From: Candidatus Daviesbacteria bacterium
GTDB lineage: Bacteria; Patescibacteriota; Microgenomatia; Daviesbacterales; UBA10151
DNA length: 64,000 nt
Direction: 5' to 3'
Assembly (NCBI GenBank): GCA_016186955.1
Contig: JACPKP010000009.1
Location: 24,463-88,462, forward strand
In this document: in pieces, positions 7,330 to 26,146 of the stretch
Layout of the letters: each line of letters starts with the position of its first letter
Numbering within the stretch: position 1 is the first letter of the stretch
Notes under the pieces: generated by a model
Seen by the model: the letters and a program-made list of their open reading frames with translations, nothing else
Databases searched by the model: none
Told to the model about the DNA's origin: nothing
Made by a program: the position numbers and the translations under genes

Positions 7330-7378
7330 CTCTAGGTGAAACCGGGATCAACTTTCTGTCCGGAAGGAGGCGAAAAAT

Positions 7379-9791: not shown

Positions 9792-9792
9792 A

Positions 9793-10671
9793 ATGAAACT
9801 TTTTAAAAGTAAAAAACCTCAATATGAATATTTGCGTAAAAAATGGTTGCAGCGCCATAAAGAGATTACACAAAGAGTATTGGATAAACACTTCCGTAAG
9901 GCAGCGATAAGTTCCCTGGGAGGTTTAATACTTTTGACAACACCAGGCCTTTCCCTGCCTGCTGCCAATTTTATAGCCGACCAGGTCAATGTTACTGCCC
10001 AAGAGGATAGGAACGCTTTGATTAAAGCTGAGCTTTTAGATAAATTGCCGCATGAGATGAGAAACCTGTCAAAAGAAGAAGAGACTAAAATTACGGATGT
10101 TTTATCTAAAGATTTTGGCATTAAAGTTACAGGGGAGTTGGAAGGCAAAAGATTAAACAGGACATATGGTTTGATCGGTGGAGAACAACACCTATACAGA
10201 TATCCAGGGGATAATTTATTTGCGCATGCCAAAACTGTCCAGGATTTTGCGATGTATGGTGATGCGGGTATAGCGCCCGGATTGGGCGCTTGGGGTTACT
10301 TTGCCCCCTCAAAAGCAGAATTTACCCAAAAAGACGAAGAAAGGGAAAGATATTATATAGCGGTACAAACTTTTTTATCTTCTGGTTTTGCGGAAAGATT
10401 TAAAGAGTACCGGGATTTTTTTAAATTCCGTAAAATGTTATTAGCCAATCCAAAAACCGGGCAATCAGTGGTGGCGGTTATTGGTGATGCAGGTCCGGCT
10501 CAGTGGACAGGCAAGCATCTTGGCGGCAGCCCTGAAGTGATGCAGGGATTAGGTTTGGCATCAGGGCCGCGAAAAGGGCCGGTACTTTATTTTTTTATTG
10601 ATGACCCTGAAGATCAAGTTCCTTTAGGCCCAATAAAAATAGCTGAAAATGCTAAACTGGCAGTAAAGTAA
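9793..10671 (+). CDS. Hypothetical protein with an N-terminal signal/TM segment
   Basis: 292-aa ORF with a hydrophobic N-terminal segment. No motif. Confidence 0.5.
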   Translation: MKLFKSKKPQYEYLRKKWLQRHKEITQRVLDKHFRKAAISSLGGLILLTTPGLSLPAANFIADQVNVTAQEDRNALIKAELLDKLPHEMRNLSKEEETKITDVLSKDFGIKVTGELEGKRLNRTYGLIGGEQHLYRYPGDNLFAHAKTVQDFAMYGDAGIAPGLGAWGYFAPSKAEFTQKDEERERYYIAVQTFLSSGFAERFKEYRDFFKFRKMLLANPKTGQSVVAVIGDAGPAQWTGKHLGGSPEVMQGLGLASGPRKGPVLYFFIDDPEDQVPLGPIKIAENAKLAVK

Positions 10672-10680
10672 TTTAAATTT

Positions 10681-11019
10681 ATGAAATATTTTTATAGCCA
10701 TGTACTTGAGATAGAATCATTAATTTACGAACTTGATAAGATGGATTTGTCTAAAGATGAAAAATACCATCTGGCACAACTTATTGATGCGAACATACAC
10801 AACCATGTTTTAGATATAGTGCTATCAGAGTTGTCAGAAGAAGACAAAATAATTTTTTTAAAACATTTAAACGCCGACCAACATGACAAAGCCTGGCAGC
10901 ATATCCAGGAAAAGATAGAAAAGATAGAAGAAAAAATTATAAACGCAGTAGAAGATCTAAAAAAAACCTTGCATAAAGATATAAAAATGAGCCAAAAATT
11001 AAAAAGACTGCAATCTTAA
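10681..11019 (+). CDS. Hypothetical acidic helical protein
   Basis: 112-aa ORF directly abutting the secF start. Confidence 0.45.
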   Translation: MKYFYSHVLEIESLIYELDKMDLSKDEKYHLAQLIDANIHNHVLDIVLSELSEEDKIIFLKHLNADQHDKAWQHIQEKIEKIEEKIINAVEDLKKTLHKDIKMSQKLKRLQS

Positions 11020-11892
11020 ATGATACATTTAATGAAGTACAAATTATGGTTTTTTATTCTTTCTACTCTGGTTATACTTCCAGGGATTTTTTATCTTTAT
11101 ACATCAGGTTTGAAACTGGGGATAGATTTTACAGGTGGCGCGCTTTTAGAATATCAATTTATTTCACCAAAGGAATCACTCACTAAAGAAGCTCTCTCCG
11201 GTTACGGGGTTGTAACGCCGGAAGAAAAAAATACCTTCATCATCAGGACTAAACCGTTGGAGCAGGATGAGTTGAATAAACTTAGGGTAAAGTTTACTGA
11301 TCAGTTTGGTAAATTTGAGGTCAGGAGGGAAGAAAATGTAGGGCCGGTGATTGGTGAGGAATTAAAACAAAAAGCAATTTTAGCAATTTTACTGGCCTGT
11401 ACTGCCATAGTCCTCTATATTACTTATGCATTCAGGAAGCTCCCCAAACCGGCAAGTGCTTTCCGCTTTGGTATTGCAGCAATTGTTGCACTCATCCATG
11501 ATGTGCTTGTGGTACTGGGAATGTTTGCGATCTTTGGAAAATTTTTTAATGTTGAAATAGATACTCTTTTTGTCACAGCCCTTTTAACTATCATTGGTTT
11601 TTCTGTCCATGACACAATTGTTGTATTTGACAGGATTAGGGAAAACATGCCCAAATTCATAGGAAAAAAGTTTACTGAAGTTGCGGATGTATCGATAACA
11701 CAAACTTTAGCCAGGTCACTCAATACCTCACTGACAGTTGTTTTTGTGCTATTGGCATTGCTGCTATTTGGAGGTGAAACAATCAAATGGTTTGTAGTTG
11801 CACTTTTGGCAGGTGTTATTTCCGGCACATATTCTTCAATTTTTAATGCCACAGCGCTGCTGGCTTTTTGGGAGGAGAGATTGGGCCATTAA
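11020..11892 (+). CDS. secF: Protein translocase subunit SecF
   Basis: LGIDFTGG motif and six TM segments. Confidence 0.9.
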   Translation: MIHLMKYKLWFFILSTLVILPGIFYLYTSGLKLGIDFTGGALLEYQFISPKESLTKEALSGYGVVTPEEKNTFIIRTKPLEQDELNKLRVKFTDQFGKFEVRREENVGPVIGEELKQKAILAILLACTAIVLYITYAFRKLPKPASAFRFGIAAIVALIHDVLVVLGMFAIFGKFFNVEIDTLFVTALLTIIGFSVHDTIVVFDRIRENMPKFIGKKFTEVADVSITQTLARSLNTSLTVVFVLLALLLFGGETIKWFVVALLAGVISGTYSSIFNATALLAFWEERLGH

Positions 11893-11901
11893 GGAATAAA
11901 T

Positions 11902-13542
11902 ATGACCTTTTTTTTAGAACCGCTGGTTTTTTTTCTGACATCGGTTGTAAGTGTGGTATTAATTTACTATAAAATTCCGATAGCAACGCTGCAGCAAATA
12001 ATTCTTGGGATACTGATTGTCTTGCTCCTTTCTTTCCGCTGGCTGCTTGCTGAAAGGACTAAACGGTTGATAAAAGTTTTTGCCCGTTTGGTTTTACTTA
12101 GTCTCTCCTCCCTATTTGTCCAAATTTTAGTAATTTCTTCCGGCGGTTTTTACAGTCCTTTGTTGATATTATTGCATTTATATACTTTGGGAGCCAGTTT
12201 TTTATTAAATATCCCCTCATCTATTAGTTTTCTGGTGTTCTCGGTGGCGGTTTTGATAACTAATATTGTTTTAGACCCAAAACTGCAGAGTATTTTCAGG
12301 GACGATCCCGGCTCGGCAATTTTATATATAGTTTCATTTTTGGTAATTATTCCGTTGGCACAGACTCTTATGAAAACCTATCACCTGAAGGATGCATTGG
12401 CAAAAATTCTTTATGAGAGCTTAAACCTGAGGGTATTAAGGGAAAAATCAATATTGACCAGTTTAAATGAGATAGTAGTCATTACAGACCATAATTTGAA
12501 AATTATTTCTGCCAACGATGCTTTTGAAGACGCAACCGGTTTATCCGGCGGTGAGTTTATAAACCAGAATTTTTTGGATAAAATTTCACTTGTTGATCGA
12601 GATAATGTGCCGGCAAACTCAACTTCACTTTCAATAAAGGATGTATTGGTTGACCAAACAAACCATATTGTCAGCGGTTTTTATCTTTCTACAAAAGGAA
12701 ACCCTAAATCCAGACAGGTTGTTGTGGAGGTCAAACCTATTGTTGGGGTTAGTAGAACAATCATACAGCTTGTATTTGTGATCAAGGAACCAAGGGCGGC
12801 TATAGAGATTGAACCTCACACTGACCTTGAGGCAGCGCACACTAAACAAAATATGATAATAACCAATATCAAAAGATTGTTGGTAAACTTTAAGGAACCG
12901 GGTTTAAAAACAGAACTGGAACTTTTGCAACAAGGGGAGAGTGACCTTTTAATAGCACAAGAGCTTGAAGATCACCCCATCAAAAATGCCAACCAATATG
13001 AGGATATTGTGCTGCTTTGCAAAAAAGCAATTTCATACAAACAGGATCTGGCCAGAAGTTTGGGGGTTAACCTGCAACTGATATTTCCAAACGCACCGGG
13101 TGAATCCTCGTATTTAAACCTCCGTGAAACTAATTCCAGTTTAATATCTCAGGTTGTTTCAGATTATGCTGCGCAGGTAAATGTCAAGTGGTTTGGTATT
13201 CTGCTAAGTAAATTATTGGATATAGCTGTTTTGCTATCATCAGGGCAAAAAAACCCTACAGTTGTTGTATCTATTAATATAATACTTAAAAGTGAGATAG
13301 AAGTTGAGCTTGTTTTCCCTTCACCTGTTATGACACCTGAAAAACAGAAAGAGCTGTTTTTACAATATTATGGAGATCTTGCTGCCACAACTAACTTAAG
13401 GTTAGGCAGCGGGTTGGAAGGGTTTATTGCCAAAGTTGTTGCTGACCAGCTTAATATTAACCTTGATGTAAAAACAAAGGAGGGTCCGGACAGATTGGTC
13501 TTCAGGTTTAAATTATATAAAAAGCCCGCAGGTAAGATTTGA
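11902..13542 (+). CDS. Membrane sensor protein with a PAS domain (histidine-kinase-like, degenerate)
   Basis: Multi-TM N-terminus. A PAS-like segment follows (LNEIVVITDHNLKIISANDAFEDATGLSGGEFINQNF). No clear H-box or G-box was seen. Confidence 0.5.
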   Translation: MTFFLEPLVFFLTSVVSVVLIYYKIPIATLQQIILGILIVLLLSFRWLLAERTKRLIKVFARLVLLSLSSLFVQILVISSGGFYSPLLILLHLYTLGASFLLNIPSSISFLVFSVAVLITNIVLDPKLQSIFRDDPGSAILYIVSFLVIIPLAQTLMKTYHLKDALAKILYESLNLRVLREKSILTSLNEIVVITDHNLKIISANDAFEDATGLSGGEFINQNFLDKISLVDRDNVPANSTSLSIKDVLVDQTNHIVSGFYLSTKGNPKSRQVVVEVKPIVGVSRTIIQLVFVIKEPRAAIEIEPHTDLEAAHTKQNMIITNIKRLLVNFKEPGLKTELELLQQGESDLLIAQELEDHPIKNANQYEDIVLLCKKAISYKQDLARSLGVNLQLIFPNAPGESSYLNLRETNSSLISQVVSDYAAQVNVKWFGILLSKLLDIAVLLSSGQKNPTVVVSINIILKSEIEVELVFPSPVMTPEKQKELFLQYYGDLAATTNLRLGSGLEGFIAKVVADQLNINLDVKTKEGPDRLVFRFKLYKKPAGKI

Positions 13543-13550
13543 GTTTAAGG

Positions 13551-14936
13551 TTATAGATCCCCGTAAAATGTGAAATCTGCAGGTGTAGGATAGAGCAAAT
13601 GATCCATAGCCTCATCCCGTTTGACTTTAAGATAACTTTTAATTAAATCTTTTGAAAATACGCCGCTTTTTACCAAGGCAGTGTCATTTTCCAAATTATT
13701 CCAAATGTCAAAAAGGTTGTTAGCGGCCTGGGGAATATTTTTATTATCCCAAATATTTTCATCAAACGGACCGAAATTAAAATCTTTCGGTTTTAAATCT
13801 TCCCTGATCCCTTCAAGACCGTATATAAGCATTGCAGAAAAAGAAAGATAGGGGTTGCATGTTGGGTCAGGGGTCCTAAACTCTATTCTTTTTGATTTTT
13901 CTTCACCTGTATAATACATGGGTATTCTTATTGCAGCAGAACGGTTTCTTTTGGCGATTGCTTTGGAGGTAGGCGCCTCATATCCCGGAACAAGCCTCCG
14001 GTAAGAATTTAAGGTAGGGTTTGTAAACCCCAGGAGGGAATCAACATTTTTGAGGAGGCCTATTGCATATGACATGCCGGTATTTGATAATTCACCATAA
14101 CCTTTAGGGTCGTAAAATATATTTTTTCCGTCTTTAAAAATACTCTGGTGGGTGTGCATGCCTGAACCATTGTCGCCTTTGATTGGTTTAGGCAAGAAAC
14201 AGGCAACCAGGCCGTATTTTTTTGCCAGGTTTCTTGCTACATACTTGTACTTCATCACCTGGTCTGCTGTGTTTACCAAACTGCCATAATGCATGTCTAT
14301 CTCAACCTGGCCGGCAGTTGCAACTTCATGGTGGTGCACTTCTATTGTGATACCGATACTTTCTAAAATCCTGACCATTTCAGACCGGAACTCCTGAAGT
14401 TTGTCAAAGGGAGGAGTTGGGACATAACCTGATTTATTCTGGATAGGATATCCATCTTGTTCATCAGGGTTTTGATCCGGTAATTCACGGCTTTTGATTT
14501 CAAAATATGAGTGGTATGGGTTTGAACTGTAACTTAATTTATCAAAAAGAAAAAATTCTATTTCAGGGCCCCAGTATGATATGTCGCCAAAACCGCTTTT
14601 TTTAAGGTACTTCTCTGCTTTTTTTGCAGCGCTGCGGGGGTCTTTTCCGAAAGCCTGTTTTGTTTCAGGGTCGTAGATGTCGCAAATTACCGACAAAGTC
14701 CTTTCAAAAAAGGGGTCATTAAAATGGGTGGTAATATCAGGCACAAGGAGCATATCGCTTTGGTCAATGGATGAAAATCCCCTGATTGAGGATCCGTCAA
14801 ACCCAAATCCTTTACTGATATTATCAGGTGTATATTCATGGTAAGGGACACTTTTGTGTTGCCAAGTTCCGCGCAGGTCAATAAATATCAAATCAACAAA
14901 ATCAATATTTTCTAAATTTTTTTTGTCTTTTTCCAT
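13551..14936 (-). CDS. glnA: Glutamine synthetase type I
   Basis: DLRG near the N-terminus and GSGMHTHQS in the ATP-binding region. Length 461 aa. Confidence 0.9.
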   Translation of the reverse strand: MEKDKKNLENIDFVDLIFIDLRGTWQHKSVPYHEYTPDNISKGFGFDGSSIRGFSSIDQSDMLLVPDITTHFNDPFFERTLSVICDIYDPETKQAFGKDPRSAAKKAEKYLKKSGFGDISYWGPEIEFFLFDKLSYSSNPYHSYFEIKSRELPDQNPDEQDGYPIQNKSGYVPTPPFDKLQEFRSEMVRILESIGITIEVHHHEVATAGQVEIDMHYGSLVNTADQVMKYKYVARNLAKKYGLVACFLPKPIKGDNGSGMHTHQSIFKDGKNIFYDPKGYGELSNTGMSYAIGLLKNVDSLLGFTNPTLNSYRRLVPGYEAPTSKAIAKRNRSAAIRIPMYYTGEEKSKRIEFRTPDPTCNPYLSFSAMLIYGLEGIREDLKPKDFNFGPFDENIWDNKNIPQAANNLFDIWNNLENDTALVKSGVFSKDLIKSYLKVKRDEAMDHLLYPTPADFTFYGDL

Positions 14937-15024
14937 GTCTGGTTAAAATTTGAAGACTACAATGTCCTGGAGAATCCTCTGCGGTGAAGAACTGTTTTTA
15001 TATTGGCACAAATTTTTTTTTCCG

Positions 15025-15798
15025 TCAAGTACCAAAAACTATAATTATAGATTCTGCGATATCCCTCATAGATTTTCGCCTGTTCATAGATTCTTTGCGG
15101 ATGAATTGATATGACTGCGCTTCATTTAATTTTTTATACTTCATCAACAGCCCTTTGGCTTTTTCTATCAATTTTCTTTCTTCTAAAGTATTCTCAAGGT
15201 GTAGCACCCGTCTTTTTAAAGTAATCTTTACAAAGGCAGACGCAATCAGTTGAACCAGTGAATTTATAGTCCTTACCTCCGTAACGGAAAAATTGTAAGG
15301 CATGCGGTTTTGCAGATTAATTACACCGACAACACCTCCGGAATCCAGTATCGGGATAGACATGAAGCTTTCATAGGTGTCTTCCGGCAGTTCCTTAAAA
15401 AATTTAAAACGGGGATCTTTATAGGCGCCCCTTTTTATAACGACCACTTCTTTGTGCGCTACAACCCAACCGGTGATTCCCTCCCCCTGGTGTAATATAA
15501 TTTTCCCCAACTGTTTTTTGTGGGGTTTTTTTGACCCAATTAAAATTACCTGTTTTTCGTCCCTGTCATGGAAATATATTAAGATAGAATCAGCAGGGAT
15601 AATTTCAGTAATGATTTTAATTAAGTTTTTTAGGAAAATATCAAAATCAAAGTGATTGAATACAACCAAATCGGATAGTAAGTTAATCGCTTTTGACAAG
15701 GAATTGCCTGGTTGGTTTTTAATTTGGGGCATAAACTTTGATCCGTCCGAGTAAATATTCACGTCTGTTTTTAGAAGAATCTTTAAGGACTTCTTCAA
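15025..15798 (-). CDS. GAF-ANTAR RNA-binding antitermination regulator
   Basis: Central GAF-like region. The C-terminal ANTAR signature is ERKLIEKAKGLLM...SYQFIRKESMNRRKSMRDIAESII. It lies directly upstream of glnA on the same strand. The start is probably the internal Met at MPQIKNQ. Confidence 0.7.
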   Translation of the reverse strand: MKKSLKILLKTDVNIYSDGSKFMPQIKNQPGNSLSKAINLLSDLVVFNHFDFDIFLKNLIKIITEIIPADSILIYFHDRDEKQVILIGSKKPHKKQLGKIILHQGEGITGWVVAHKEVVVIKRGAYKDPRFKFFKELPEDTYESFMSIPILDSGGVVGVINLQNRMPYNFSVTEVRTINSLVQLIASAFVKITLKRRVLHLENTLEERKLIEKAKGLLMKYKKLNEAQSYQFIRKESMNRRKSMRDIAESIIIVFGT

Positions 15799-17173
15799 AA
15801 AGTTTATTTAAAATTTCTCCAACCTTGGGTCCGGGTTTAATATTTAAAACTTTCATCACATCATGCCCGTTGATTTTTAAGTCACTGATGGTAAAAGGTT
15901 TTTTCAAAACTGCGGCAATTTTCTGTTGGAATTTTTCCATTCTCCACGAGACCTCTTTTTGGGTTCCTCCGCCCAGCCTGTCGCCGATCCTTAGGGCCAT
16001 CATATCATCCAGATTTTCTATGCCGGCATTTTTAATAAACCTTCTGATGGCGCTGTCTGTTTGGTTTTCTGAAACAGAAAACATATGCCAACGCACCAAA
16101 CGGTAAAGTTTATCAGCCTGTTTGTTGGATAAGTTAAACCTTCTGGCGATTGTAGTTACTTTCCTCCCTCCGTAAACATCATGATTGTAAAAAGTGACAT
16201 TACCGGTTTTGTCAATTGTTACTGTGTCCGGTTTGCCCACATCATGGAGCAAAGATGCTAGCCTGGTTAGCGGGTCCTTTGCCGGGCAGTATTTTAGTGT
16301 CAGCAGTGAATGTTCCCCTATATCATAGACTCTGCTATGTTTTGGTCCTTCCTGCTTCAAGCCAAAACATTTTTCCAGTTCCGGAAGAATAATTTGTAAT
16401 ATTCCCGCTTCCCTGAGTTTTAAAATTCCATCATATGAATTTTCAGCTGCCAATATTTTGAAAAGTTCATCCCTGATCCTTTCCCAGGCGATATTTTTAA
16501 TTAAAGAAGCGTTTTGTTTTATTGCCTCAAATGTTTTTTCTTCAATATTAAAACCGAGCTGGGTTGAAAATCTAATAGCACGCATGAGCCGCAGTGCATC
16601 TTCTTCAAACCTCAGATTAGGATTTCCGACAGCTTTTATAAGTTTATTTTTTATGTCCTGTTGACCGCTAAAAGGATCAACTAACGTCATTCTGGCCCGC
16701 TTCGCCGAAGCTCCCGCGAGGTGAGCTTGTCCAGAATCTCTCGTTTGGTTTGGTTCTGGAGTCGCTTCGCTCCCCAGAATGACGGATAAGGCTATAGCAT
16801 TTATAGTAAAGTCGCGGCGCGATAAATCATCTGCGATTTTATCAGTCCAACTAACATTAGTTGGATGCCGATAATCTCGATAATCTCCTTCTTTACGCAT
16901 TGTAGTTATCTCAACGAGTGATTGATCTCGGCCTTTATCGTAATGAATATTTTTTTCTGGGATGATTACAGTTCCAAAGCTGTTTCCGTAAACTCCTTCC
17001 GGAAAAATCTTTAAGATCTCCTCCGGTTTGGCATCAGTTGTAAAATCCCAATCTTTTACCCCCTTTTCCATTAAAAGGTCACGGACTGCCCCGCCGACAA
17101 TATAAATTTGATAATTGGCTTTTTGAAATTTATCTAAAATATTGAATACCTCTTTAGGGAATTTAAAATCCAT
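15719..17173 (-). CDS. cca: CCA-adding tRNA nucleotidyltransferase with HD domain, carrying a ~33-aa in-frame insertion
   Basis: YIVGGAVRDLL...DWDF head motif, RDFTINAIA, and a C-terminal HD region. The inserted peptide VILGSEATPEPNQTRDSGQAHLAGASAKRARMT is encoded by a palindromic repeat element. Confidence 0.85.
   Translation of the reverse strand: MDFKFPKEVFNILDKFQKANYQIYIVGGAVRDLLMEKGVKDWDFTTDAKPEEILKIFPEGVYGNSFGTVIIPEKNIHYDKGRDQSLVEITTMRKEGDYRDYRHPTNVSWTDKIADDLSRRDFTINAIALSVILGSEATPEPNQTRDSGQAHLAGASAKRARMTLVDPFSGQQDIKNKLIKAVGNPNLRFEEDALRLMRAIRFSTQLGFNIEEKTFEAIKQNASLIKNIAWERIRDELFKILAAENSYDGILKLREAGILQIILPELEKCFGLKQEGPKHSRVYDIGEHSLLTLKYCPAKDPLTRLASLLHDVGKPDTVTIDKTGNVTFYNHDVYGGRKVTTIARRFNLSNKQADKLYRLVRWHMFSVSENQTDSAIRRFIKNAGIENLDDMMALRIGDRLGGGTQKEVSWRMEKFQQKIAAVLKKPFTISDLKINGHDVMKVLNIKPGPKVGEILNKLFEEVLKDSSKNRREYLLGRIKVYAPN
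16686..16783. mobile_element. MITE-like palindromic element (about 98 bp) inserted in frame in cca
   Basis: Terminal inverted repeats GTCATTCTGG...CCAGAATGAC. Internal GCTTCGCCGAAGC/CGCTTCGC palindromes. It shares its GTCAT(T/C)C termini and CGAAG core with copies at 27896, 30895 and 56062. Confidence 0.6.
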
Positions 17174-17236
17174 ATTCTGATTTTACGCCCCATCATTGCT
17201 ATTGACAACAGTCATAAAAAGGCTCTATCGTATATA

Positions 17237-18946
17237 TTGATGGGCAAACGGCATTCTTATGAAAAAGGGATAGTGCATCTGCTACCACTGGTTCTGATTG
17301 CTGCGGTTGGTGTTATCTCTTTTTTGTTAATATCTTCAACAGCGCCGTTTAAAGGCAACCTATTTGACAAACTTTTCCCTAAGCACCGTCCCAAGGCGGC
17401 TATAGCAGATTGTTCTGCAACGGCAGTAGGGACTGCCTGTCTTTATTTATCGCCAAAGAGTAAGACAGTAGCCCCTTCTACTGCTTTTGCGGTTCAGATC
17501 AGGGTTAACTCAAATGGAGTCAATGCTAATGCTGCGGAAACAGTAATAACATATCCGACTAATATTTTTAAAGTTGACAACATAGATTATACAGGCAGCG
17601 ATTTTGACGTTAAGGCGCAGGAGACAAATACCCCCGGATTGATTGATTTAGTTAGGGGGTCTACTGTGCCACAACAGGGGGATAAGTTAATTGCTACTGT
17701 AAATTTCAGCTCGCTTACCACAGAAGCCTCCTCGGTTGTAGATTTTGATACTAACTCGTCTGTATACTCCGGGGCAACCAATATACTACAAAATACTCTC
17801 GGGGGGGTTTATGCCGTAAAAGTAAACTTTGCAGCCGGCCAGGCAAGTTTTCTATTGAGCGCCCCTTCAACAACATATTCTGTCGGGCAACCGGTTTCAG
17901 CCAGTCTAAGCGTTAGGGCCGATACCGATGAAGCTAATCTGTTTTCTGCTAAGATCCATTTTGATAATACGAAATTGCAGGTTGTAGGAATTGATACAAC
18001 AGGCACATTTGTACAAAATTGGGTTGATAATTTTTCTGATAATTCCACAGGTGAGATTTCTCTGGTGGGGGGAGTGCCAACCCCTGGTTACAAAACTGCC
18101 GGTGCAGACAGCCTGATGGCAAAAGTCAATTTTAATACCATTGGAGCCGGCGCTGCTGCGGTAGACTTTGAGGCAACTTCGGCGATATACCGTAATTCCG
18201 ACAACACAAATATGTTAAACACAACACAAAACTTGTTGATAACTATTAACCCGGGTGCGACCCCAACACCGACTCCAACTCCGACGCCTACACCTACGCC
18301 CACGCCAACTCCTCCCCCAACTGCAACACCTACTCCAACAGCTTCACCTACCCCAACCCCAACGCCCATAGCTTGTTCTATAAGCAGTGCAAGTTGGGAT
18401 TTTATAGATCCCAGTAATACAGCAGTTATCGAAAGTGCAGTAGTTGGGTTGAAAATAAATGGGACAGGCGATTGCAACGGGCAAAGCGTACAAACCAAAG
18501 TGAAACAGGCAGGTTTATTTGTCAATGAAGCGGTCAACACCCAACCGTCTGCCGCCACATTCAACGGGAACACTGCGGTAACTTCATGGTTGAGTGAATA
18601 CCATCCTGACGGTCCTTTTGGGATTGGATTATTTGATCCGCCTGATTACTATTTCACAGCTAAATTGGCTGGCGGTACTAATGAATTTTCATCAAGTGAC
18701 CCCAAACTGCAGGTTAGACAGGCTGGTGCACCTAATTTTAGAAAGGGTGATGCTAACCATGATGACGTAGTAGATTTCCAGGACCTTTCAGTACTGCACA
18801 CCCATTGGCTTGATAATAAAGCCACCAATCCGGAACAGTGGATTACAGAATTGGATGTAAACGATGATAATGACCTAAATACCATAGATTTCTCCGGTAT
18901 AATATTGGTGCTTTGCGGGAATGGTTTAGTGAAAGCCTGCAATTAG
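17237..18946 (+). CDS. Secreted/anchored protein with two cohesin-like domains, a Pro-Thr linker and a C-terminal dockerin-like domain
   Basis: N-terminal leader with TM helix. Cohesin-like repeats are similar to ORF 25478. The PTPTPTPT linker runs 18244-18355. The C-terminal Ca-binding repeats are GDANHDDVVDFQDLSVL and DVNDDNDLNTIDFSGIIL. Confidence 0.6.
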   Translation: MMGKRHSYEKGIVHLLPLVLIAAVGVISFLLISSTAPFKGNLFDKLFPKHRPKAAIADCSATAVGTACLYLSPKSKTVAPSTAFAVQIRVNSNGVNANAAETVITYPTNIFKVDNIDYTGSDFDVKAQETNTPGLIDLVRGSTVPQQGDKLIATVNFSSLTTEASSVVDFDTNSSVYSGATNILQNTLGGVYAVKVNFAAGQASFLLSAPSTTYSVGQPVSASLSVRADTDEANLFSAKIHFDNTKLQVVGIDTTGTFVQNWVDNFSDNSTGEISLVGGVPTPGYKTAGADSLMAKVNFNTIGAGAAAVDFEATSAIYRNSDNTNMLNTTQNLLITINPGATPTPTPTPTPTPTPTPTPPPTATPTPTASPTPTPTPIACSISSASWDFIDPSNTAVIESAVVGLKINGTGDCNGQSVQTKVKQAGLFVNEAVNTQPSAATFNGNTAVTSWLSEYHPDGPFGIGLFDPPDYYFTAKLAGGTNEFSSSDPKLQVRQAGAPNFRKGDANHDDVVDFQDLSVLHTHWLDNKATNPEQWITELDVNDDNDLNTIDFSGIILVLCGNGLVKACN

Positions 18947-18957
18947 ATAAATAGGTC

Positions 18958-20511
18958 ATGAAAAATTTTGATCAAAAGGCTTTTATCCATGCCCCGTTGT
19001 TGCTTCTTCTGGCCGCCTTTGGGTTAATCACTTTTCTTTTATTTACCTTTAACTCATCTTTTAAAAATGGCCTGTTTTCTTATCTTTTCCCAAAACCACC
19101 CTCCCATGCTGCTACTGCTGTAGATGTAACTTCCCAACTTGAAAATTTAGGTAATCCCTTCACTGCGAAACCCACCTATGCCAGGAATGTTTGGGATATG
19201 CAAAACTTTAATGGAAAAATCTATTTAGGGCATGGGGATTTTAATAGCAATGCCGGGCCGATTGATGTTTTCTATTATGATCCAAGCTCCTCAACCTTCT
19301 TGAAACAAGCTACTTCAGGCAATAGTTGTGGTTCAACATGTGTGGATGAGGAGCAGCTTGGGATATATCACATTTTTAACAATACCCTTTATACTCCTGG
19401 GATTGACCCAAGAGGATCAGTTCCTGCCGGCAATTTCTACCGCATAGAAAATGGTTCTTTAACCAAGCACAATACCATTTCTCCTTTAAATCTTCACACT
19501 TATGATATTTATAAATTTGGAACTGCTCTTTTTGCTGCAGGTTATGGCACCAACACTTCCCAAGGATTAGCAATTTCTACTAATGATGGTGTCAGCTGGA
19601 CAGCGCCCGCTTATGGCAATGAAAACACTACTGATGGTGGTTCCTCCACCTATAAAGGCGGCGCTAATAACTTTTTTGAGATTGGAGGAAAATTATATGT
19701 CGCAGGTACCTTTTACAGACAAGGCCAGGATACCAGTGGCAACTGGTGGCAACACTTTATAAATATTGCCCGTTTCGACGGAGGGAATCTTTTTACCATA
19801 GTTAACTGGGACGCTGCTAAGGCCATGTTTCCTGGCTTTCAGGGCACTTCAGTTGTGGCTGGAACACCTTCGCTTACTATTACCGGCAACTTAATCCTTA
19901 CAAGATGGGTAAATTTCAATAACCAACTTGTCTATATTGGCGAGGATAGCGGTGTGCCAAAAGCCTTATTTAAAGCTGCCACTTTTGGTACAGGCCAGGT
20001 TATCACTTTGCCTGATAACGCCCTGCCCAGGGATATTTTAGTTTCAGGAGGAACTGTCTATGTTTTAGCGTCAACTGGATCAGGCTCCACTTATACTAAC
20101 TATGTTTTTTCTTCAACTGATTTAAATACCTGGGATGAGGTTTTGCATTTTGGTTCAGATACTTTTGCCAGATCTTTTGAGATGTTAAATGGGGACTTTT
20201 ACTTTGGCCTAGGGACTGACTCAACTACCTCCCCTTCTCCCTCAACAGGTAATATTTTAAGGGTAAAACAAGCTGCTTATCAACCGCCACCTTCACCTTC
20301 TGCACCTATCTCAGAGCCAATTACCCCTTCGCCAACCCCTACCCCAGGCCCCAAGCAAGGGGATATCAATGGGGATAACAAGGTGGATATAATTGACTTA
20401 TCAGTACTTTTGTCTAACTGGCTTGGCACAGATACCAGCTCTGATATAAACAAGGATGGCAAGGTTGGTATTATTGATCTATCAATACTTCTATCCAACT
20501 GGCTAAAGTAA
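18958..20511 (+). CDS. Secreted protein with a C-terminal dockerin (two DINGDNKVDIIDLSVL / DINKDGKVGIIDLSIL repeats)
   Basis: Conserved N-terminal leader. The body may be a beta-propeller or lectin-like domain. Dockerin type I-like repeats at the C-terminus. Confidence 0.6.
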   Translation: MKNFDQKAFIHAPLLLLLAAFGLITFLLFTFNSSFKNGLFSYLFPKPPSHAATAVDVTSQLENLGNPFTAKPTYARNVWDMQNFNGKIYLGHGDFNSNAGPIDVFYYDPSSSTFLKQATSGNSCGSTCVDEEQLGIYHIFNNTLYTPGIDPRGSVPAGNFYRIENGSLTKHNTISPLNLHTYDIYKFGTALFAAGYGTNTSQGLAISTNDGVSWTAPAYGNENTTDGGSSTYKGGANNFFEIGGKLYVAGTFYRQGQDTSGNWWQHFINIARFDGGNLFTIVNWDAAKAMFPGFQGTSVVAGTPSLTITGNLILTRWVNFNNQLVYIGEDSGVPKALFKAATFGTGQVITLPDNALPRDILVSGGTVYVLASTGSGSTYTNYVFSSTDLNTWDEVLHFGSDTFARSFEMLNGDFYFGLGTDSTTSPSPSTGNILRVKQAAYQPPPSPSAPISEPITPSPTPTPGPKQGDINGDNKVDIIDLSVLLSNWLGTDTSSDINKDGKVGIIDLSILLSNWLK

Positions 20512-20523
20512 TATACTGGTTAT

Positions 20524-21084
20524 ATGCCCAGGAATTTAAACTCCAAAGGGATAATACACCTTAGCATACCAATACTACTTGCTATAGTTGGTGTGATAGT
20601 TTTTTTGCTGTTTTCATCAAGCGCATCTTTTAAAAACAAACTATTTTCCTCGCTTTTCCCTAAATTACCTGGTTTTGCAGCAACAGGTGCAATTTCCAAT
20701 ATTACAGACAATAGTGCTTCTTATCCCAATGGACAAATTCCAAAGTATGAAAAATATGAAGTTACCTTTGATGTGGCGACCAATGCTTCCAACCCCCAGC
20801 TGCCTTATGATCCTGCCCCTCCACCAGGCATGCAAGCTGGAGTAGGAGTGACAGTTAATGGAGAATTTTCCCAGGATAACTTTACTACCAAAACGGTTAT
20901 TCCTGCTTTTTACTATCAAAATTTTGACTACCAGGTTAAAAGTAACCGGGAATGGTTTTATCCTACCTCCAATTATTCCTGGAAGTTAAGGTTTGCACCG
21001 GATAAAGAAGGAACCTGGCAATACAGAATTACCGCCCAAGATAGCTCCGGAACTTCTACTTCCGGGCCCAAACCTTTACAGTAA
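20524..21084 (+). CDS. N-terminal fragment (leader plus 130 aa) of a dockerin-containing glycoside hydrolase, separated from the rest by a frameshift
   Basis: Has the same leader as the 18958 and 23481 proteins. The reading frame of the downstream ORF opens at 21045, overlapping this ORF's 3' end in a different frame. Confidence 0.5.
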   Translation: MPRNLNSKGIIHLSIPILLAIVGVIVFLLFSSSASFKNKLFSSLFPKLPGFAATGAISNITDNSASYPNGQIPKYEKYEVTFDVATNASNPQLPYDPAPPPGMQAGVGVTVNGEFSQDNFTTKTVIPAFYYQNFDYQVKSNREWFYPTSNYSWKLRFAPDKEGTWQYRITAQDSSGTSTSGPKPLQ

Positions 21085-21185
21085 CCCCAAATTCTACCAA
21101 CCATGGTTTTGTTAAGGTTTCCAAAAAAGACCCCAGGTATTTTGAATATGATGACGGAACTTATTTTCCAGCTCAAGGCTACAAC

Positions 21186-23468
21186 ATGACTTGGGGAGAA
21201 ATTAGCTGGGATAATCCGGTTTTATTCAATCAGGCTAATTTCCAGAAAATGGGCCAAAATGGAGTTCAGCTTATTAGAAACTGGCTATCAGATTGGGGTA
21301 TTTTTGCTTCTGATGACCAGCCTTGGACTGGTGTTTCAGGCAATGCTGCCAACAATCCGGGGGTTAGGGTGCCTTATATTCCTCCCGCAACATCTCCTAC
21401 AGTGGTACCGCCTTTTGGCAGTTCAGATGTCGAGTTTCAGATTCAACATTACTACAATCCATGTAACTTTTATGGAGGGTGGCATGATGGCCAAGGCCCG
21501 GCTGTCAAGACCAACACTAAATACCGTGTTTTTATTAGATACTTAATTCCCCAAGCTTTGCCACAAGCTGTAGATACTACTAAACCGTCTGGTTTGGTAG
21601 CTAAAGTCTCAGGCTGGCTAGATGCACCTTTGACCAATCCAAACAATAACTGTGCCAAGGCTGGTTCAGGAACAGATATAACACCTCATGTAACTCAGGT
21701 ATCCAGCAAAGATGCAAACGGGAATTGGCAATGGCAGATTTTAGAGGGAACAATCGATCCTAGCTTAATTGGTACTAAAAACTTTTTAGGTAGGATTTAT
21801 CTTTCCATGGATAATATAGATCATCTCACCGTTCCTGCTCCAGGTGTAGGTGAAATAATTTGGGTGGATAGGATTGAAATTAGAGAGGATTTGGGTGACA
21901 ACTTATGCGCGGCTGCCTCAGGTTCAGGAGCCCCGTTTGATTTGAGTAATGGGAAATGCGGCACCAACATTATGACTGCTCCCTGGTCTTCCTACAACCA
22001 GTATTACAACCAAAGGTTTTCCTTATCATTTGATAAAGCTTTAGAACTGGCCCACCAAAATAATGTTTATTTGAAACTGGTAATTTTGGAGAAAAATGAA
22101 TATATCCAAAACCATATTGATTATTTAGGCAGAGGTATTTTGGATAACCAGACGGGTTGCCTTCAACCCTATGGGGTAGTAGAGTGTCCAAATAACAATT
22201 GGTTTTATGGTAATTGGCGGAGTGTGACTAAGACCAGATGGCTTCAGCAAGCCTACTGGAGATATCTTCAGGCCAGGTGGGGTTATTCAACTAATGTTCA
22301 CTCCTGGGAACTTATTAATGAAGGAGATCCATTTAGTGGTTTGCACTACACCTTGGCAGATGAGCTGGGAAAATATATGCATCAATTTGGGCCAAATGCC
22401 CATTTAGTTACCACCTCTAATTGGAACAGTTTTCCGGAAGGGACAAACCAACTTTGGGGCAACCCAAGTTTCCCAAACTTGGATTATACAGATGTTCATC
22501 ATTATATGATTAAAGGCCAAAATGGTTCTGTTAGGACTGATAAGAAATTTATGGGAGATAGCGTTACAGCCTTTCTGGCTCCGGATTGGTTTGACTCAGC
22601 TTCAGCGGTCAACAGAGTAAGCCAGGTCTTAAGCCCTCTTGGTATATATGGTGTTGGTAAACCCATTATGAGAGGAGAAACCGGCTTTGTGACTGGTAAT
22701 AGTGATGGCTGGAACAATGAAATTCAAAACGATACTAGTGGAGTTTGGCTTCATAAGTTTGTTTGGGCGGGGATTAATTCAGGGGGACTGATAGAAAGCT
22801 ATTGGTATAGCAAGCAACATATCAACCCATCGCCGACTAAGGATTTTACGCCGGAATTTGGCAAATATTACAACTTTATTAAAGATATCCCTTTAAGTAA
22901 TGGTAATTATCGGGAAGCCTCTGCTTCTGCCTCAGATACTAATTTGAGGGCTTGGGGGCAGAAAGACACAGTTAATAAAAGGGCGCATCTTTGGATAGAT
23001 AATAAAACCCATACCTGGGGTAATGTAGTTTATGCTACTCCATCTGCAACCATTGCTTCTGGAACTACGATAACTCTGCCTAATATGCCACAAGGCTCAT
23101 ACCCTATTTCCTGGATAGATACTTATGCTTCTCCCTCTGCCGCTTTAGTTAAAACAGAAACAGTTAACGTAGATGCATCTGGTAATTTAGTTTTATCCCT
23201 CCCTCAAGCTTTAACTAAAGATGTAGCTGTAAAAATTGGGGATTACTTTTCTCCGGCTCCTAACCCCTCTCTCAGCCCTTCTCCTATACCAACCCCTACC
23301 CCAGGTTCCAAGCAGGGAGATATCAATGGGGATAACAAGGTGGATATAATTGACTTATCAGTACTACTGTCCCATTGGCTTGGCACAGATACCAGCTCTG
23401 ATATAAACAAGGATGGCAAGGTTGGTATTATTGATCTATCAATACTTCTATCCAACTGGCTAAAGTAA
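21186..23468 (+). CDS. Glycoside hydrolase, clan GH-A (GH5/GH26-like), with a C-terminal dockerin; frame open from 21045
   Basis: WELINEGDP (acid/base NEP-like) and IMRGETGFV (nucleophile GE.G) motifs. C-terminal dockerin repeats identical to those of the 18958 protein. Confidence 0.6.
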   Translation: MTWGEISWDNPVLFNQANFQKMGQNGVQLIRNWLSDWGIFASDDQPWTGVSGNAANNPGVRVPYIPPATSPTVVPPFGSSDVEFQIQHYYNPCNFYGGWHDGQGPAVKTNTKYRVFIRYLIPQALPQAVDTTKPSGLVAKVSGWLDAPLTNPNNNCAKAGSGTDITPHVTQVSSKDANGNWQWQILEGTIDPSLIGTKNFLGRIYLSMDNIDHLTVPAPGVGEIIWVDRIEIREDLGDNLCAAASGSGAPFDLSNGKCGTNIMTAPWSSYNQYYNQRFSLSFDKALELAHQNNVYLKLVILEKNEYIQNHIDYLGRGILDNQTGCLQPYGVVECPNNNWFYGNWRSVTKTRWLQQAYWRYLQARWGYSTNVHSWELINEGDPFSGLHYTLADELGKYMHQFGPNAHLVTTSNWNSFPEGTNQLWGNPSFPNLDYTDVHHYMIKGQNGSVRTDKKFMGDSVTAFLAPDWFDSASAVNRVSQVLSPLGIYGVGKPIMRGETGFVTGNSDGWNNEIQNDTSGVWLHKFVWAGINSGGLIESYWYSKQHINPSPTKDFTPEFGKYYNFIKDIPLSNGNYREASASASDTNLRAWGQKDTVNKRAHLWIDNKTHTWGNVVYATPSATIASGTTITLPNMPQGSYPISWIDTYASPSAALVKTETVNVDASGNLVLSLPQALTKDVAVKIGDYFSPAPNPSLSPSPIPTPTPGSKQGDINGDNKVDIIDLSVLLSHWLGTDTSSDINKDGKVGIIDLSILLSNWLK

Positions 23469-23480
23469 TATACTGGTTAT

Positions 23481-25475
23481 ATGCCCAGAAATTTAAACTC
23501 CAGAGGGATAGCCCATCCAGCCATACTTATTTTCCTGGCTGTTGTGGGGATTCTTTTATTTTTGTTTATCACCTCAAGCGCATCTTTTAAAAACAATCTA
23601 TTCTCCTACCTCTTTCCTAAACCTAAATCTCAGGCTGCTACCACAAACCCCTGGGTCTCAGCTTACTATTTAGGTTATTTCTGGGACTGGATTTCAGACC
23701 CCACCCAAGCTGTTAATGCTGTGGATATGTCCACCATGACCCATCTGATCTTTGCCAGGTATGCCCCTGGATCAGGGTCAATGGGTGGAAGCGCAGGGCA
23801 GTTAATGAATGGTGCAGGTACAGGACATACAGCAGTTGAGGACCCTTTAATTGCCAAAGCCCACTCAAACAATGTCAAGGCTATCTTGATGATTGGCGGG
23901 GTGGGTGACGGAGGAGGCTTTGTGGCATCAACAGCCAATCCCACAATCCGGGCCACCTTTATCAGTAACATCTTAAATAAAGCTGTTGCAAAAAACTATG
24001 ATGGGGTGGATATTGACTGGGAAGACAGTCTTGATAATACAACCCAGCAAAACCAGCTGATTGCATTTCTAACAGAGCTAAGAACTGCTGCCAACAGTAG
24101 GCCCAGATACCAAACCCCTAACCAGCCGTTTATTATTACCTTTCCGGGGTTCTGGGCTAATTCTAATTTTGATACAGTCCAACCTGCCTGGAAAGTAACT
24201 GTGGCTAATTTAGTTGATCAATACAACTTAATGAGTTATGACATGATGTGGTGTTGTGATGGTTGGCAAACCTGGTTTTGGGCAGCGTTAAAAGGAGAAG
24301 CGCCTACTCATCCTACATCTTTAGAACATTCCATTCAAACGTATGTCAACGCCGGAGTTCCAAGAAGCAAATTAGGAATAGGTATAGGGTTATATGGCGG
24401 AGGCTGGAGAGCACCAGTGAATGGCCCAAGACAGGATCCTGGTACTGCTCAGGATTGGGGTGGAGATGATACCAATGATACTTATGCAGAGTTTTATAAA
24501 ACAGGAATGTTTGACCCTGCCTCTTTTTATTGGGATAGTGCTGCTCAGGTTGGGTATTATTCCTATAACCCGCCCAAAAGCTATCATGGCAATACTGTTT
24601 CATACCTTACTACTGAAGATGATCGGACAATTGCATCACAAGGAGCCTGGGTGAGGGCAGGTAATGCCGCAGGAACTATAGTTTGGGGTATTAATTATGG
24701 TGATGTTACCCCAACCAGTAATCCTGCTATGCAGGCTATTAAGCAGGCTTTCTTAAACCCAAATGCGACCCCAATTCCTACTCCCACAACCGGTCCAACT
24801 CCGCCTCCGCTTCCTTCGCCTACTCCTACCCCAACACCTACACCACTACCGTCAGGGATAATTAACATAGGTGAGACTAATATTTTAACTATTCCTGACA
24901 ACGGCAACGCTAATCTTTTAATTGCCCAACAAACTACGCTAGCCCAAACTGCCACAATACAATCTTTGTCCTTCTATGTTACTAATGCAGCAGGCAATCT
25001 GCGTTTGGGAATCTATGATGCTACAGGACCTGGAGGAGGGCCTGGTGCTAAAAAAGCTGAATCAAATTCATTTACCCCTATTGTTGGCTGGAACACTGCG
25101 AATGTAATATCTCCGGCATTACTTCCAGCGGGGACATATTGGCTGGCATATTTACCCAGTGATGGTAATTTAACTTTTGTCAAAGACTATCCAGGAGCTG
25201 CTGCATACTATTCATATAACTTTGGAGTTATGCCAACAACTTTCTCCACTGCTCCCAATACTGAAGGAGTCCACTGGTCACTCTATGCCACTTTTAACAG
25301 CGCTACTGTGCCTACTTTGCCAGGTGATTTAAATGGAGATAACAAGGTGGATATAATTGACTTATCAGTACTGCTGTCCCATTGGCTTGGCACAGATGCC
25401 GGCTCTGATATAAGCAAAGACGGTAAAGTTAATATTGTAGACTTGTCAATACTTCTATCTAACTGGCTGAAATAA
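23481..25475 (+). CDS. Glycoside hydrolase family 18-like (chitinase-like) protein with a PT linker, a beta-sandwich domain and a C-terminal dockerin
   Basis: YDGVDIDWE fits the GH18 DxxDxDxE catalytic motif. Has the N-terminal leader and C-terminal dockerin repeats. Confidence 0.65.
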   Translation: MPRNLNSRGIAHPAILIFLAVVGILLFLFITSSASFKNNLFSYLFPKPKSQAATTNPWVSAYYLGYFWDWISDPTQAVNAVDMSTMTHLIFARYAPGSGSMGGSAGQLMNGAGTGHTAVEDPLIAKAHSNNVKAILMIGGVGDGGGFVASTANPTIRATFISNILNKAVAKNYDGVDIDWEDSLDNTTQQNQLIAFLTELRTAANSRPRYQTPNQPFIITFPGFWANSNFDTVQPAWKVTVANLVDQYNLMSYDMMWCCDGWQTWFWAALKGEAPTHPTSLEHSIQTYVNAGVPRSKLGIGIGLYGGGWRAPVNGPRQDPGTAQDWGGDDTNDTYAEFYKTGMFDPASFYWDSAAQVGYYSYNPPKSYHGNTVSYLTTEDDRTIASQGAWVRAGNAAGTIVWGINYGDVTPTSNPAMQAIKQAFLNPNATPIPTPTTGPTPPPLPSPTPTPTPTPLPSGIINIGETNILTIPDNGNANLLIAQQTTLAQTATIQSLSFYVTNAAGNLRLGIYDATGPGGGPGAKKAESNSFTPIVGWNTANVISPALLPAGTYWLAYLPSDGNLTFVKDYPGAAAYYSYNFGVMPTTFSTAPNTEGVHWSLYATFNSATVPTLPGDLNGDNKVDIIDLSVLLSHWLGTDAGSDISKDGKVNIVDLSILLSNWLK

Positions 25476-25477
25476 CT

Positions 25478-26146
25478 ATGCGATCTGATAAATATTACCA
25501 GAAAGGTATTGTGCCGGTAGCAATAATTCCTCCTGCCCTTTTTCTGACAATAATCACAACAATCCTCGTTTTGGTTATTTTGCGTGGCGGCCTAAGACAG
25601 AATACAAATTTTAATCCGGATAAAAAAGATAAAATTGTTTCCGACGAAGCAACACCGTCTGCCGGTTCTATAACGGACGTTGATGTTAAAAACGATAACA
25701 GTATAGAATCACAACCGGAAGAAACATTATCCTCTGCGGCTTTTTTGCTTGAAGCAAAAAACAAATACCAAGCGGATGAGGAATTTTCTGTAAAAGTATT
25801 GGCGCGTTCTAAAAATGATGCATCCAACCTTTTTGTTGCAGAGCTTAACTTTTCAAAAGATATTTTCAAGGTGAAGGGAATTAACACAGGCGACAGTTTT
25901 GTCCGGTTTTGGGCGGATAATTTTTTTGACAATGAAACAGGAAAGATTAATTTAGTTGGGGGAATACCTAATCCCGGATTTAAAACACAGGGAAAAGGTG
26001 GTTTACTGGCTGTAATAATTTTTAAGCCAAAAAAGACCGGTGAAGGGTCTATCTCTTTTGATAAGAACTCAGCAATTTTTAGGAATTCAGACAACAAAGA
26101 TATTTTAGAAGAAAAAAGCGGGATACAAATTACAATTACTGAATAA
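25478..26146 (+). CDS. Membrane-anchored cohesin-like domain protein
   Basis: N-terminal TM helix. Its domain resembles the cohesin-like repeats of ORF 17237 (FKVKGINTGDSFVRFWADNFFDNETGKINLVGGIPNPGFKT...). Confidence 0.5.
   Translation: MRSDKYYQKGIVPVAIIPPALFLTIITTILVLVILRGGLRQNTNFNPDKKDKIVSDEATPSAGSITDVDVKNDNSIESQPEETLSSAAFLLEAKNKYQADEEFSVKVLARSKNDASNLFVAELNFSKDIFKVKGINTGDSFVRFWADNFFDNETGKINLVGGIPNPGFKTQGKGGLLAVIIFKPKKTGEGSISFDKNSAIFRNSDNKDILEEKSGIQITITE

Follow-up and report, generated by a model that had tools for sequence, protein, structure and literature searches.

A candidate cohesin-dockerin operon and its N-terminal leader in a Candidatus Daviesbacteria genome

How might an ultra-small bacterium with a reduced genome deliver enzymes to its surface and keep them there? 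Candidate Phyla Radiation (CPR) bacteria are thought to be attached to, or scavenging from, other cells, and we know of almost no account of how such bacteria deliver enzymes to the surface and retain them. The question is raised by five consecutive genes of a groundwater Candidatus Daviesbacteria bacterium (Patescibacteria group, Microgenomates group), here called g1 to g5, on the 291,363-bp contig JACPKP010000009.1 of GenBank assembly GCA_016186955.1. They were studied within a stretch of 64,000 nucleotides (the window; positions 24,463 to 88,462 of the contig, forward strand). All five lie on the + strand, 2-12 nt apart; g1 starts at the first nucleotide of segment 17237-26146 of the window, and the stop codon of g5 ends at its last. 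An initial annotation had read them as a cohesin-dockerin cluster with glycoside hydrolase (GH) modules and a shared N-terminal leader. Our analysis suggests, with roughly even confidence, that the region is a five-gene operon for a minimal cohesin-dockerin surface enzyme system, in which exported proteins would be released from the leader and assembled on a membrane-anchored cohesin. The genes are as follows, with the third split by a frameshift into two open reading frames (ORFs):

17237-18946, + strand: g1, adaptor-scaffoldin-like, with leader, cohesin dyad, Pro/Thr linker, X module and divergent dockerin (start codon TTG at 17237 or ATG at 17240)
18958-20511, + strand: g2, with leader, seven-repeat beta-propeller-like passenger, Pro-rich linker and dockerin
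20524-21084, + strand: g3a, with leader and DUF5060 domain, the 5' part of the frameshifted gene
21186-23468, + strand: g3b ORF, which together with the in-frame stretch upstream (21045-23468) holds a GH-A-type catalytic domain, linker and dockerin
23481-25475, + strand: g4, with leader, GH18 domain, a beta-rich module without assignment and dockerin
25478-26146, + strand: g5, with QKG and a hydrophobic helix, a low-complexity linker and one cohesin-fold module; candidate membrane anchor

Cohesins, dockerins and cargo

Cohesin-fold modules were located in the first and last genes of the set:

17435-17830, + strand: g1 cohesin-fold module 1 (approximately aa 67-198), a beta-sandwich of high predicted local distance difference test score (pLDDT)
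17843-18250, + strand: g1 cohesin-fold module 2 (approximately aa 203-338), a beta-sandwich
25730-26143, + strand: g5 cohesin-fold module, from AlphaFold and Foldseek

The AlphaFold model of the C-terminal domain of g5 had a pLDDT of 94.8, and its top 38 Foldseek matches in the PDB were all cohesins (E 2e-8; template modelling scores 0.70-0.78). The passenger of g1 was modelled as two beta-sandwich domains (pLDDT 85-94), for which the best PDB match was the type II cohesin dyad of Acetivibrio cellulolyticus ScaA (3l8q; E 1e-14 over ~350 columns), followed by single cohesins. Residues 85-222 of g5 are 34% identical to residues ~200-337 of g1, and with a profile of the g5 family, cohesins made up eight of the top nine PDB sequence matches (E 0.002-0.14). 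Sequence models gave a different answer: Pfam Cohesin (PF00963) had no match in g1 or g5 at E<=0.1, nor did NCBIfam recognise a cohesin in either; PF00963 was likewise absent from all g5 homologues examined, and single-sequence PDB searches with g1 and g5 returned no cohesin. By their models, then, the g1 and g5 domains have the cohesin fold, a nine-stranded beta-sandwich of jelly-roll form, and by sequence they lie outside the Pfam model; the cohesins proposed in the initial annotation stand by their fold only, not by the Pfam model.

The dockerins were recognised directly. Pfam Dockerin_1 (PF00404) matched four proteins above its cut-off of 22.9 bits: g1 with 24.2 bits (E 3.9e-5), g2 with 28.4 (E 2e-6), g3b with 30.6 (E 4e-7) and g4 with 29.0 (E 1.2e-6). 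The dockerin claimed earlier for g1 was thus confirmed along with those of the enzymes. Their positions, with that of the module preceding the g1 dockerin, are:

18368-18721, + strand: g1 X module, adjoining the dockerin; poorly modelled (pLDDT 30-60)
18743-18898, + strand: g1 dockerin (Dockerin_1 at aa 503-554)
20359-20508, + strand: g2 dockerin (Dockerin_1)
23316-23465, + strand: g3 dockerin (Dockerin_1)
25320-25472, + strand: g4 dockerin (Dockerin_1)

Both of the duplicated Ca loops (D-x-[DN]-x-[DN]...D) are present in g1, where they read DANHDDVVDFQD and DVNDDNDLNTID, and in g2 and g3b; in g4 the first loop fits and the second, DISKDGKVNIVD, is one position off the pattern. Two dockerin helices are visible in the AlphaFold model of g1. 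The dockerins of g2, g3 and g4 are internally symmetric, both helices reading IIDLS[VI]LLSNW; the g1 helices are unlike them, which makes the g1 dockerin one of a different sequence type. By BLASTP, the C-terminal ~370 aa of g1 were 37-45% identical to the C-termini of five leader-bearing enzymes from relatives (P0088, P0117, P0048, P0096 and P0165, of which P0096 is a gene of contig L008). A cohesin-X-dockerin cassette homologous to g1 aa ~200-566 is thus appended to enzymes in relatives, for example to a protein with a carbohydrate-binding module (CBM) and a GH26 domain. Because single proteins carry both a cohesin and a dockerin, a daisy-chaining of enzymes is possible, to judge from these sequences.

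Might these calls over-read generic beta-sandwich and EF-hand-like modules that form no complex? In its favour, besides the missing Pfam Cohesin match, the dockerin scores are modest (24-31 bits) and cohesin-dockerin binding is a prediction. It is nonetheless very improbable: the top 38 structural neighbours of g5 are all cohesins and g1 matches a scaffoldin dyad, four dockerins exceed a curated threshold and have duplicated Ca loops, and relatives headed by the same leader include Pfam-positive cohesins beside dockerin enzymes.

The cargo of the dockerin proteins includes two glycoside hydrolase types:

20848-21036, + strand: g3a DUF5060 domain (Pfam E 9.5e-7, above threshold)
about 21087-22892, + strand: g3 catalytic domain, clan GH-A-type, by phmmer to PDB 9gmj/9gpc
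23670-24695, + strand: g4 GH18 domain (Pfam E 5e-31, 109 bits against a cut-off of 29.6)
about 24855-25298, + strand: g4 beta-rich module, no family assigned

The assignment of g4 held firmly. Its catalytic motif DGVDIDWE (an intact DxxDxDxE) lies at 24000-24023 (aa 174-181), and PDB chitinases were matched down to E 1.6e-17; g4 is, as predicted from these matches, a GH18 chitinase-type enzyme. The clan GH-A domain proposed for g3 was also supported, through homology. Together with its upstream stretch, g3 matched PDB 9gmj/9gpc (named 'DUF5060 domain-containing protein') by phmmer at E 6.5e-11 in three collinear segments. In the alignment to 9gmj, WELINE of g3 (within WELINEGDP, 22305-22331) falls on WEFWNE, and GETG (within MRGETG, 22668-22685) on GEFG, the pattern of a clan GH-A acid/base (NE) and nucleophile (GE). 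No Pfam catalytic family matched g3 at E<=10. Like the solved DUF5060 proteins (9gmj, 9gpa, 9gpc and others), g3 has DUF5060 followed by the NE and GE motifs, but the similarity is low with large insertions, and g3 differs further in its leader, its dockerin and its frameshift. A literature search on DUF5060 and the PDB codes found no paper on a solved DUF5060 protein.

The frame of g3 changes by -1 around TCCGGGCCCAAACC (21055-21065), as seen in a three-frame translation, leaving two ORFs. The sequence that separates the shift from the annotated g3b ATG aligns to residues 126-199 of 9gmj, and on the related contig L014 a single ORF of 1224 aa (15906-19580) covers both halves. NCBI starts g3b at the internal ATG, without leader. 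The same split is present in an independent Logan assembly (L013). A programmed frameshift was considered and rejected: in our own reading of the sequence, the shift site has no X XXY YYZ heptamer in the correct frame. Seven spaced G-x-[LIV]-[YF] motifs suggest a beta-propeller for the g2 passenger; it had no Pfam or PDB match except the dockerin. The initial annotation was accordingly right about which elements the five genes contain and where they lie, but it missed the frameshift in g3, and the g2 passenger contains no recognisable catalytic module.

Distribution of the leader

Four of the five proteins begin with the same leader, in which a hydrophobic helix is followed by a conserved box and an S-x-A site, and g5 has its start only. 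The coordinates, with E values from a hidden Markov model (HMM) of the four leaders, are:

17237-17398, + strand: g1 leader (aa 1-54; EKG at 17261, FPKHRPKA ending at 17398; E 2.5e-33)
18958-19110, + strand: g2 leader (E 1.8e-30)
20524-20679, + strand: g3a leader (E 7.9e-34)
23481-23636, + strand: g4 leader (E 1.1e-34)
25499-25582, + strand: g5 QKG and hydrophobic helix; leader start only, without box and without S-x-A site

With the 64 kb window translated in all six frames, this HMM found those four ORFs only (E 1e-30 to 1e-34; next match 0.12). The other exported proteins of the window carry ordinary short signals. A DUF4446 protein at 5662-6129 has a transmembrane helix and then 'NFLHKLFPK', like the leader box; the leader HMM gives it E 1.2, and the likeness is probably due to chance.

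Outside the window the leader is widespread. When 1.84 billion cluster representatives (clusters at 50% identity) were searched exhaustively with HMMER, it stood at the head of 550 protein clusters at E<=1e-3, 117 of them at E<=1e-10, and its matches all fell within protein positions 1-90; the motif was present in 148/148 sequences read, these being the top 148 of the 550. The leader thus occurs on at least 117 other protein families and probably on several hundred. The initial annotation had allowed that the leader might show no conservation beyond this cluster; the search gave the reverse, an N-terminal element on diverse passengers. A word-indexed profile search had returned a single match and had missed even the proteins of the window itself; the near-uniqueness that this implied was rejected as a sensitivity artefact in view of the HMMER result. 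Short hydrophobic queries are poorly served by a word index. A very narrow, back-translated leader pattern had no match in species-representative genomes, and Pfam and NCBIfam models had none among 66 leaders. In the literature on CPR cohesins and dockerins, CPR signal peptides and sorting signals, and class III signals in CPR, we found no description of the leader.

The passengers of 80 full-size leader proteins include Big_7 (15), Peptidase_S8 (13), Fervidolysin prodomain (12) and dockerin (12), and more rarely CBM60 (5), GH5 (3), Pfam-positive cohesin (3) and GH26 (2). Leader genes also occur in arrays. On contig L014 (JAXOUH010015211.1 of GCA_034680565.1), six consecutive genes at 6898-21971 are all leader-headed. 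They encode a GH30C-like protein; a Pfam cohesin with Big_7; a G8/CEMIP beta-helix protein whose leader is directly followed by a dockerin-like stretch; DUF5060 with CBM6/35 and dockerin; CBM4_9 and PKD with DUF5060, catalytic domain and dockerin; and a PQQ-type beta-propeller. Locus L017 (GCA_016307145.1; 1-9773 and 10001-21980) has five dockerin proteins in an array, some with only the N-terminal half of the leader and a degenerate box, directly downstream of a gene of at least 7357 codons. On two metagenome contigs from the Joint Genome Institute (JGI), a CBM-GH26 protein and a cohesin-dockerin protein are headed by the leader.

Could the leaders instead be ordinary Sec signals, alike through recent paralogy and gene conversion? 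Repeats are indeed present in the operon. At 20332-20631 the end of a dockerin, a 12-nt spacer and the start of a leader form a 300-nt junction that a repeat search found again, 86% identical, at 23289-23588, and the 153-nt dockerin segments at 20359, 23316 and 25323 are 96% identical in DNA between g2 and g3 and 86-96% among the three, which points to duplication or gene conversion among paralogues. Independent Logan assemblies are broken inside this dockerin repeat, three g5 contigs all stopping 135 nt upstream of g5; the gene order across the near-identical repeats is that of the metagenome-assembled genome. Recent paralogy is nevertheless scarcely credible as the source of the likeness, contradicted as it is by the 550 clusters with their unrelated passengers, drawn from many samples. 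The g1 and g2 leaders, moreover, are only ~50% identical to the g3 leader, yet all family-invariant positions are kept, and the other exported proteins of the window have short signals of the usual kind.

Leader anatomy, processing and assembly

The anatomy of the leader was determined from 152 sequences (median length 51 residues). The n-region ends in [NS]-Q-[KR]-G, with Gly at position 5 in 148/152, K/R before it in 87/152 (57%) and Q in 106/152. There follow [IVF]-[AIV]-[HP] and a hydrophobic stretch of ~22 residues with A-A-V-G midway (G in 146/152), then S-S-[ST]-A and the box F-K-[DN]-x-L-F-x-x-L-[FY]-P-K-P (K in 149/152), and finally x-S-x-A, with Ser at -3 in 147/152 and Ala at -1 in 151/152. 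Conservation ends right after this site. The six commonest residues at +1 are A/S/Q/V/E/D, with no Pro among them, while prolines stand at -6 and -4 (P-K-P); a looser regex scan, in which some sites were mislocated, gave one Pro at +1 among 150. In the initial annotation the leader was said to be unlike both classical Sec and type IV pilin signals. In detail this is wrong: the end of the leader obeys the -3/-1 rule of type I signal peptidase, and its N-terminal half is pilin-like.

The pilin likeness was seen in profile comparison. Against type IV prepilin N-termini, most of which were entered by hand, the first ~37 leader positions gave an hhalign probability of 88.5 (P 2.7e-6), compared with 3 for a reversed control; leader G5 was aligned with pilin G(-1), and the second conserved Gly with the region of pilin Gly14. 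In an independent test, the only near-significant match of the leader profile among PDB sequences was a Geobacter pilin (9egp_A, E 0.0023). The leader could accordingly be a class III signal: prepilin peptidase would cut after the Gly, the helix would stay and tether the enzyme or be mounted by a machinery like that of type IV pili, and the box and S-x-A would form a stalk. Other evidence agrees with such a role. The Gly and the K/R and Q before it recall pilins cut between QKG and F; type IV pili and the prepilin peptidase PilD, like sortase, are widespread in CPR (PMC6744442); no C-terminal anchor (LPXTG or transmembrane) was found in ~90 full-size leader proteins; and g5 and two L017 genes keep the N-terminal half of the leader only. 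Canonical type IV pilin genes (GFTLIE) also adjoin leader-bearing glycosidase genes at L008 442-594 and L016 9740-10516. As an observation in itself, this adjacency was seen on two unrelated contigs; the loci are few, and it may be chance.

The details of the sequence fit a class III signal less well, and we hold this reading to be somewhat unlikely, if serious. The Phe/Met of pilins at +1 is missing (I/V/A/F/G instead), as is a conserved Glu at +5, and His or Pro stands at +3, whereas the genuine pilins on related contigs, from the same kind of organism, read GFTLIE. N_methyl/TIGR02532 had no match in 66 leaders at E<=10, and pilin models turned up only in single cases, at E 0.1-0.23. In three of the 152 leaders (P0111, P0129, P0151) the Gly is missing, although box and site are retained. 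The invariant S-x-A and P-K would be left unexplained, a dockerin would be unneeded on an enzyme already tethered to the membrane, and most pilin sequences of the hhalign test had been entered by hand.

We favour, at about the level of an even bet, export by the leader followed by release at S-x-A and assembly on a membrane-anchored cohesin, as read from the sequences. The proposed order of events is as follows: the pilin-like N-terminal half (basic n-region, Gly and ~22-residue helix) would insert N-in via the Sec/signal recognition particle (SRP) route, and the F-K-x-x-L-F-x-x-L-F-P-K-P box would position the S-x-A site. An enzyme of type I signal-peptidase type would then cut after the Ala, freeing the passenger. 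Freed passengers with dockerins would be held at the surface through cohesin binding: the enzyme dockerins of g2, g3 and g4 would plug into the g1 cohesins, and the X-dockerin of g1 into the cohesin of g5, which would stay in the membrane. We infer from architecture a hierarchy resembling the classical one, which would lead from enzyme dockerin to scaffoldin cohesin, and from X-dockerin to anchoring cohesin. Release at S-x-A is favoured because conservation stops there and the -3/-1 pattern is near-invariant; because passengers, subtilase prodomains among them, begin a few residues further on; because dockerin-tagged cargo must be free to reach a cohesin; and because g5, the protein expected to stay anchored, has neither box nor site.

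Alternatively, the leader could be an uncleaved signal-anchor that tethers all four proteins, with the box as an element beside the membrane that serves in folding, glycosylation or the binding of a partner. The ~22-residue hydrophobic stretch is of transmembrane length and the candidate site is far from it; a conserved Ser/Thr triad follows the helix, PMT-type glycosyltransferases are encoded nearby in L016 and in the window, and no other anchors were found on leader proteins. This alternative is quite unlikely, as it must contend with the near-invariant -3/-1 residues and the abrupt end of conservation after them, and with passengers that are normally released, dockerins in 12/80 and subtilases with prodomains in 13/80. 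A dockerin would also be redundant on a tethered protein.

Several observations count against release and assembly as we propose them. Some ~20 residues separate the hydrophobic helix from the S-x-A site, compared with 3-7 in a Sec signal peptide, and the leader has a median length of 51 residues rather than about 20-35, so that two defining Sec features are lacking; type I signal peptidases normally accept a far shorter distance from helix to site. In g1 the residue at -3 is Pro, not Ser. The box was considered as an amphipathic interfacial helix and this was rejected, its helical hydrophobic moment being no higher than that of shuffles. Cleavage at S-x-A is a prediction from the sequence pattern, and the pairing of dockerins with cohesins is likewise predicted, from architecture. 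The orientation of the g5 helix is not certain, its charge balance being ambiguous, and the small cohesin protein of L014 bears a full leader, so that an anchor of the g5 type is not general. At least one of the 'enzymes' may be dead, since g3 is frameshifted and may be a pseudogene. Finally, the near-invariant Gly and the pilin-like register are unexplained by release, which is why the prepilin reading is a serious rival.

Release at S-x-A and cleavage after the Gly are, however, mutually compatible. It is unlikely, though conceivable, that the leader is the tag of an undescribed sorting pathway of Microgenomates-type CPR, in which a pilin-derived signal either is cut twice (behind the Gly by a prepilin-type peptidase and behind S-x-A by one dedicated to it) or is handed over to type IV pilus machinery, and that it routes a whole secretome of hydrolases, binding modules and cohesin-dockerin parts to the surface. 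With two-site cleavage, the excised pilin-like peptide of ~45 residues might have a role of its own.

Genomic setting and comparison with known systems

The operon lies among housekeeping genes. Its upstream neighbour encodes a CCA-adding enzyme, divergently transcribed, and its downstream neighbour RecJ; the remaining genes of the window include those for glutamine synthetase, RelA/SpoT, tRNA synthetases, a hut operon and transketolase, together with SecD/SecF as recognised by sequence reading. No signal peptidase, prepilin peptidase (PilD) or sortase was found among the ORFs read or Pfam-scanned in the window. In the NCBI annotation, g2, g3a, g3b and g4 are MBI2596054-57, and the g5 protein is 100% identical to MBI2596058.1 (HYW46_04985); g3a is named 'DUF5060 domain-containing protein' and the other four 'hypothetical protein'. 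A synteny scan of species-representative genomes based on RecJ returned distant relatives only (<=37% identity).

Two other parts of the window deserve mention. An apparently complete histidine-utilisation set at 35898-41573 comprises an arginase-family HutG-like protein, an amidohydrolase (HutI-like), histidine ammonia-lyase and urocanase; in a reduced CPR genome, such a catabolic pathway is notable. On the - strand, 46696-53106 holds an ORF of 2136 aa with no Pfam match at E<=0.001; the region is unusual in composition, with a GC content of up to 0.48 and a strongly negative AT skew.

Among described signals, the leader has two partial counterparts. YSIRK-G/S signal peptides occur on Gram-positive surface proteins and SipW-dependent ones on TasA/TapA (NCBIfam TIGR04088); like them, the leader combines an extra conserved motif, common to a surface or secreted set, with small residues at -3/-1. 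Its motif, however, follows the hydrophobic core, it is ~51 aa long with the site ~20 aa past the helix, and it has no NCBIfam signal-peptide match. Class III signals are found on non-pilins such as the sugar-binding proteins of the Sulfolobus 'bindosome' and the modular pilins PilB/PilC of Streptococcus sanguinis, and share with the leader the short basic n-region ending in Gly, the long helix and the large passengers. The leader differs from these in lacking Phe at +1, Glu at +5 and an N_methyl match, and in having the box and the S-x-A site besides. It has the defining features of neither group and, judged by its sequence, is an apparently undescribed variant of an N-terminal sorting or export signal.

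As for the operon, C-terminal Ca-loop dockerins on enzymes are found here as in cellulosomal and non-cellulosomal systems (ScaA, 3l8q; Clostridium perfringens, 2jh2, 2vo8, 2w1n). The tandem cohesins, X module and own dockerin of g1 follow the layout of an adaptor scaffoldin (A. cellulolyticus ScaA), and a small cohesin protein with a membrane helix is common to g5 and known cohesin-dockerin systems. Against these stand the cohesins, too divergent here for PF00963; the mode of anchoring, which would be a transmembrane helix and not a surface-layer homology (SLH) domain or sortase; the host, a CPR bacterium; and the enzymes of relatives, which often carry both cohesin and dockerin. The scaffoldin also offers only two enzyme slots, and the enzymes are of GH18 and DUF5060 type. 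With two cohesins but no CBM in g1, and with no cellulases, the operon is strictly speaking not a cellulosome. The operon fits best as a divergent member of the non-cellulosomal cohesin-dockerin systems, known here from genes and models. Such a system had been called unexpected in a reduced genome; it is less so, given that glycoside hydrolases have already been reported as comparatively abundant in Microgenomates (PMC7143001).

With two cohesin proteins and three dockerin cargos, the locus could show how a surface complex is built on an ultra-small cell without sortase or SLH anchors. The leader marks hundreds of exported protein families and is itself missed by current tools and curated libraries; a model of it would improve the prediction of secretomes for these genomes. 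Phylogenetic profiling with such a model could also point to whichever peptidase or machinery reads the leader.

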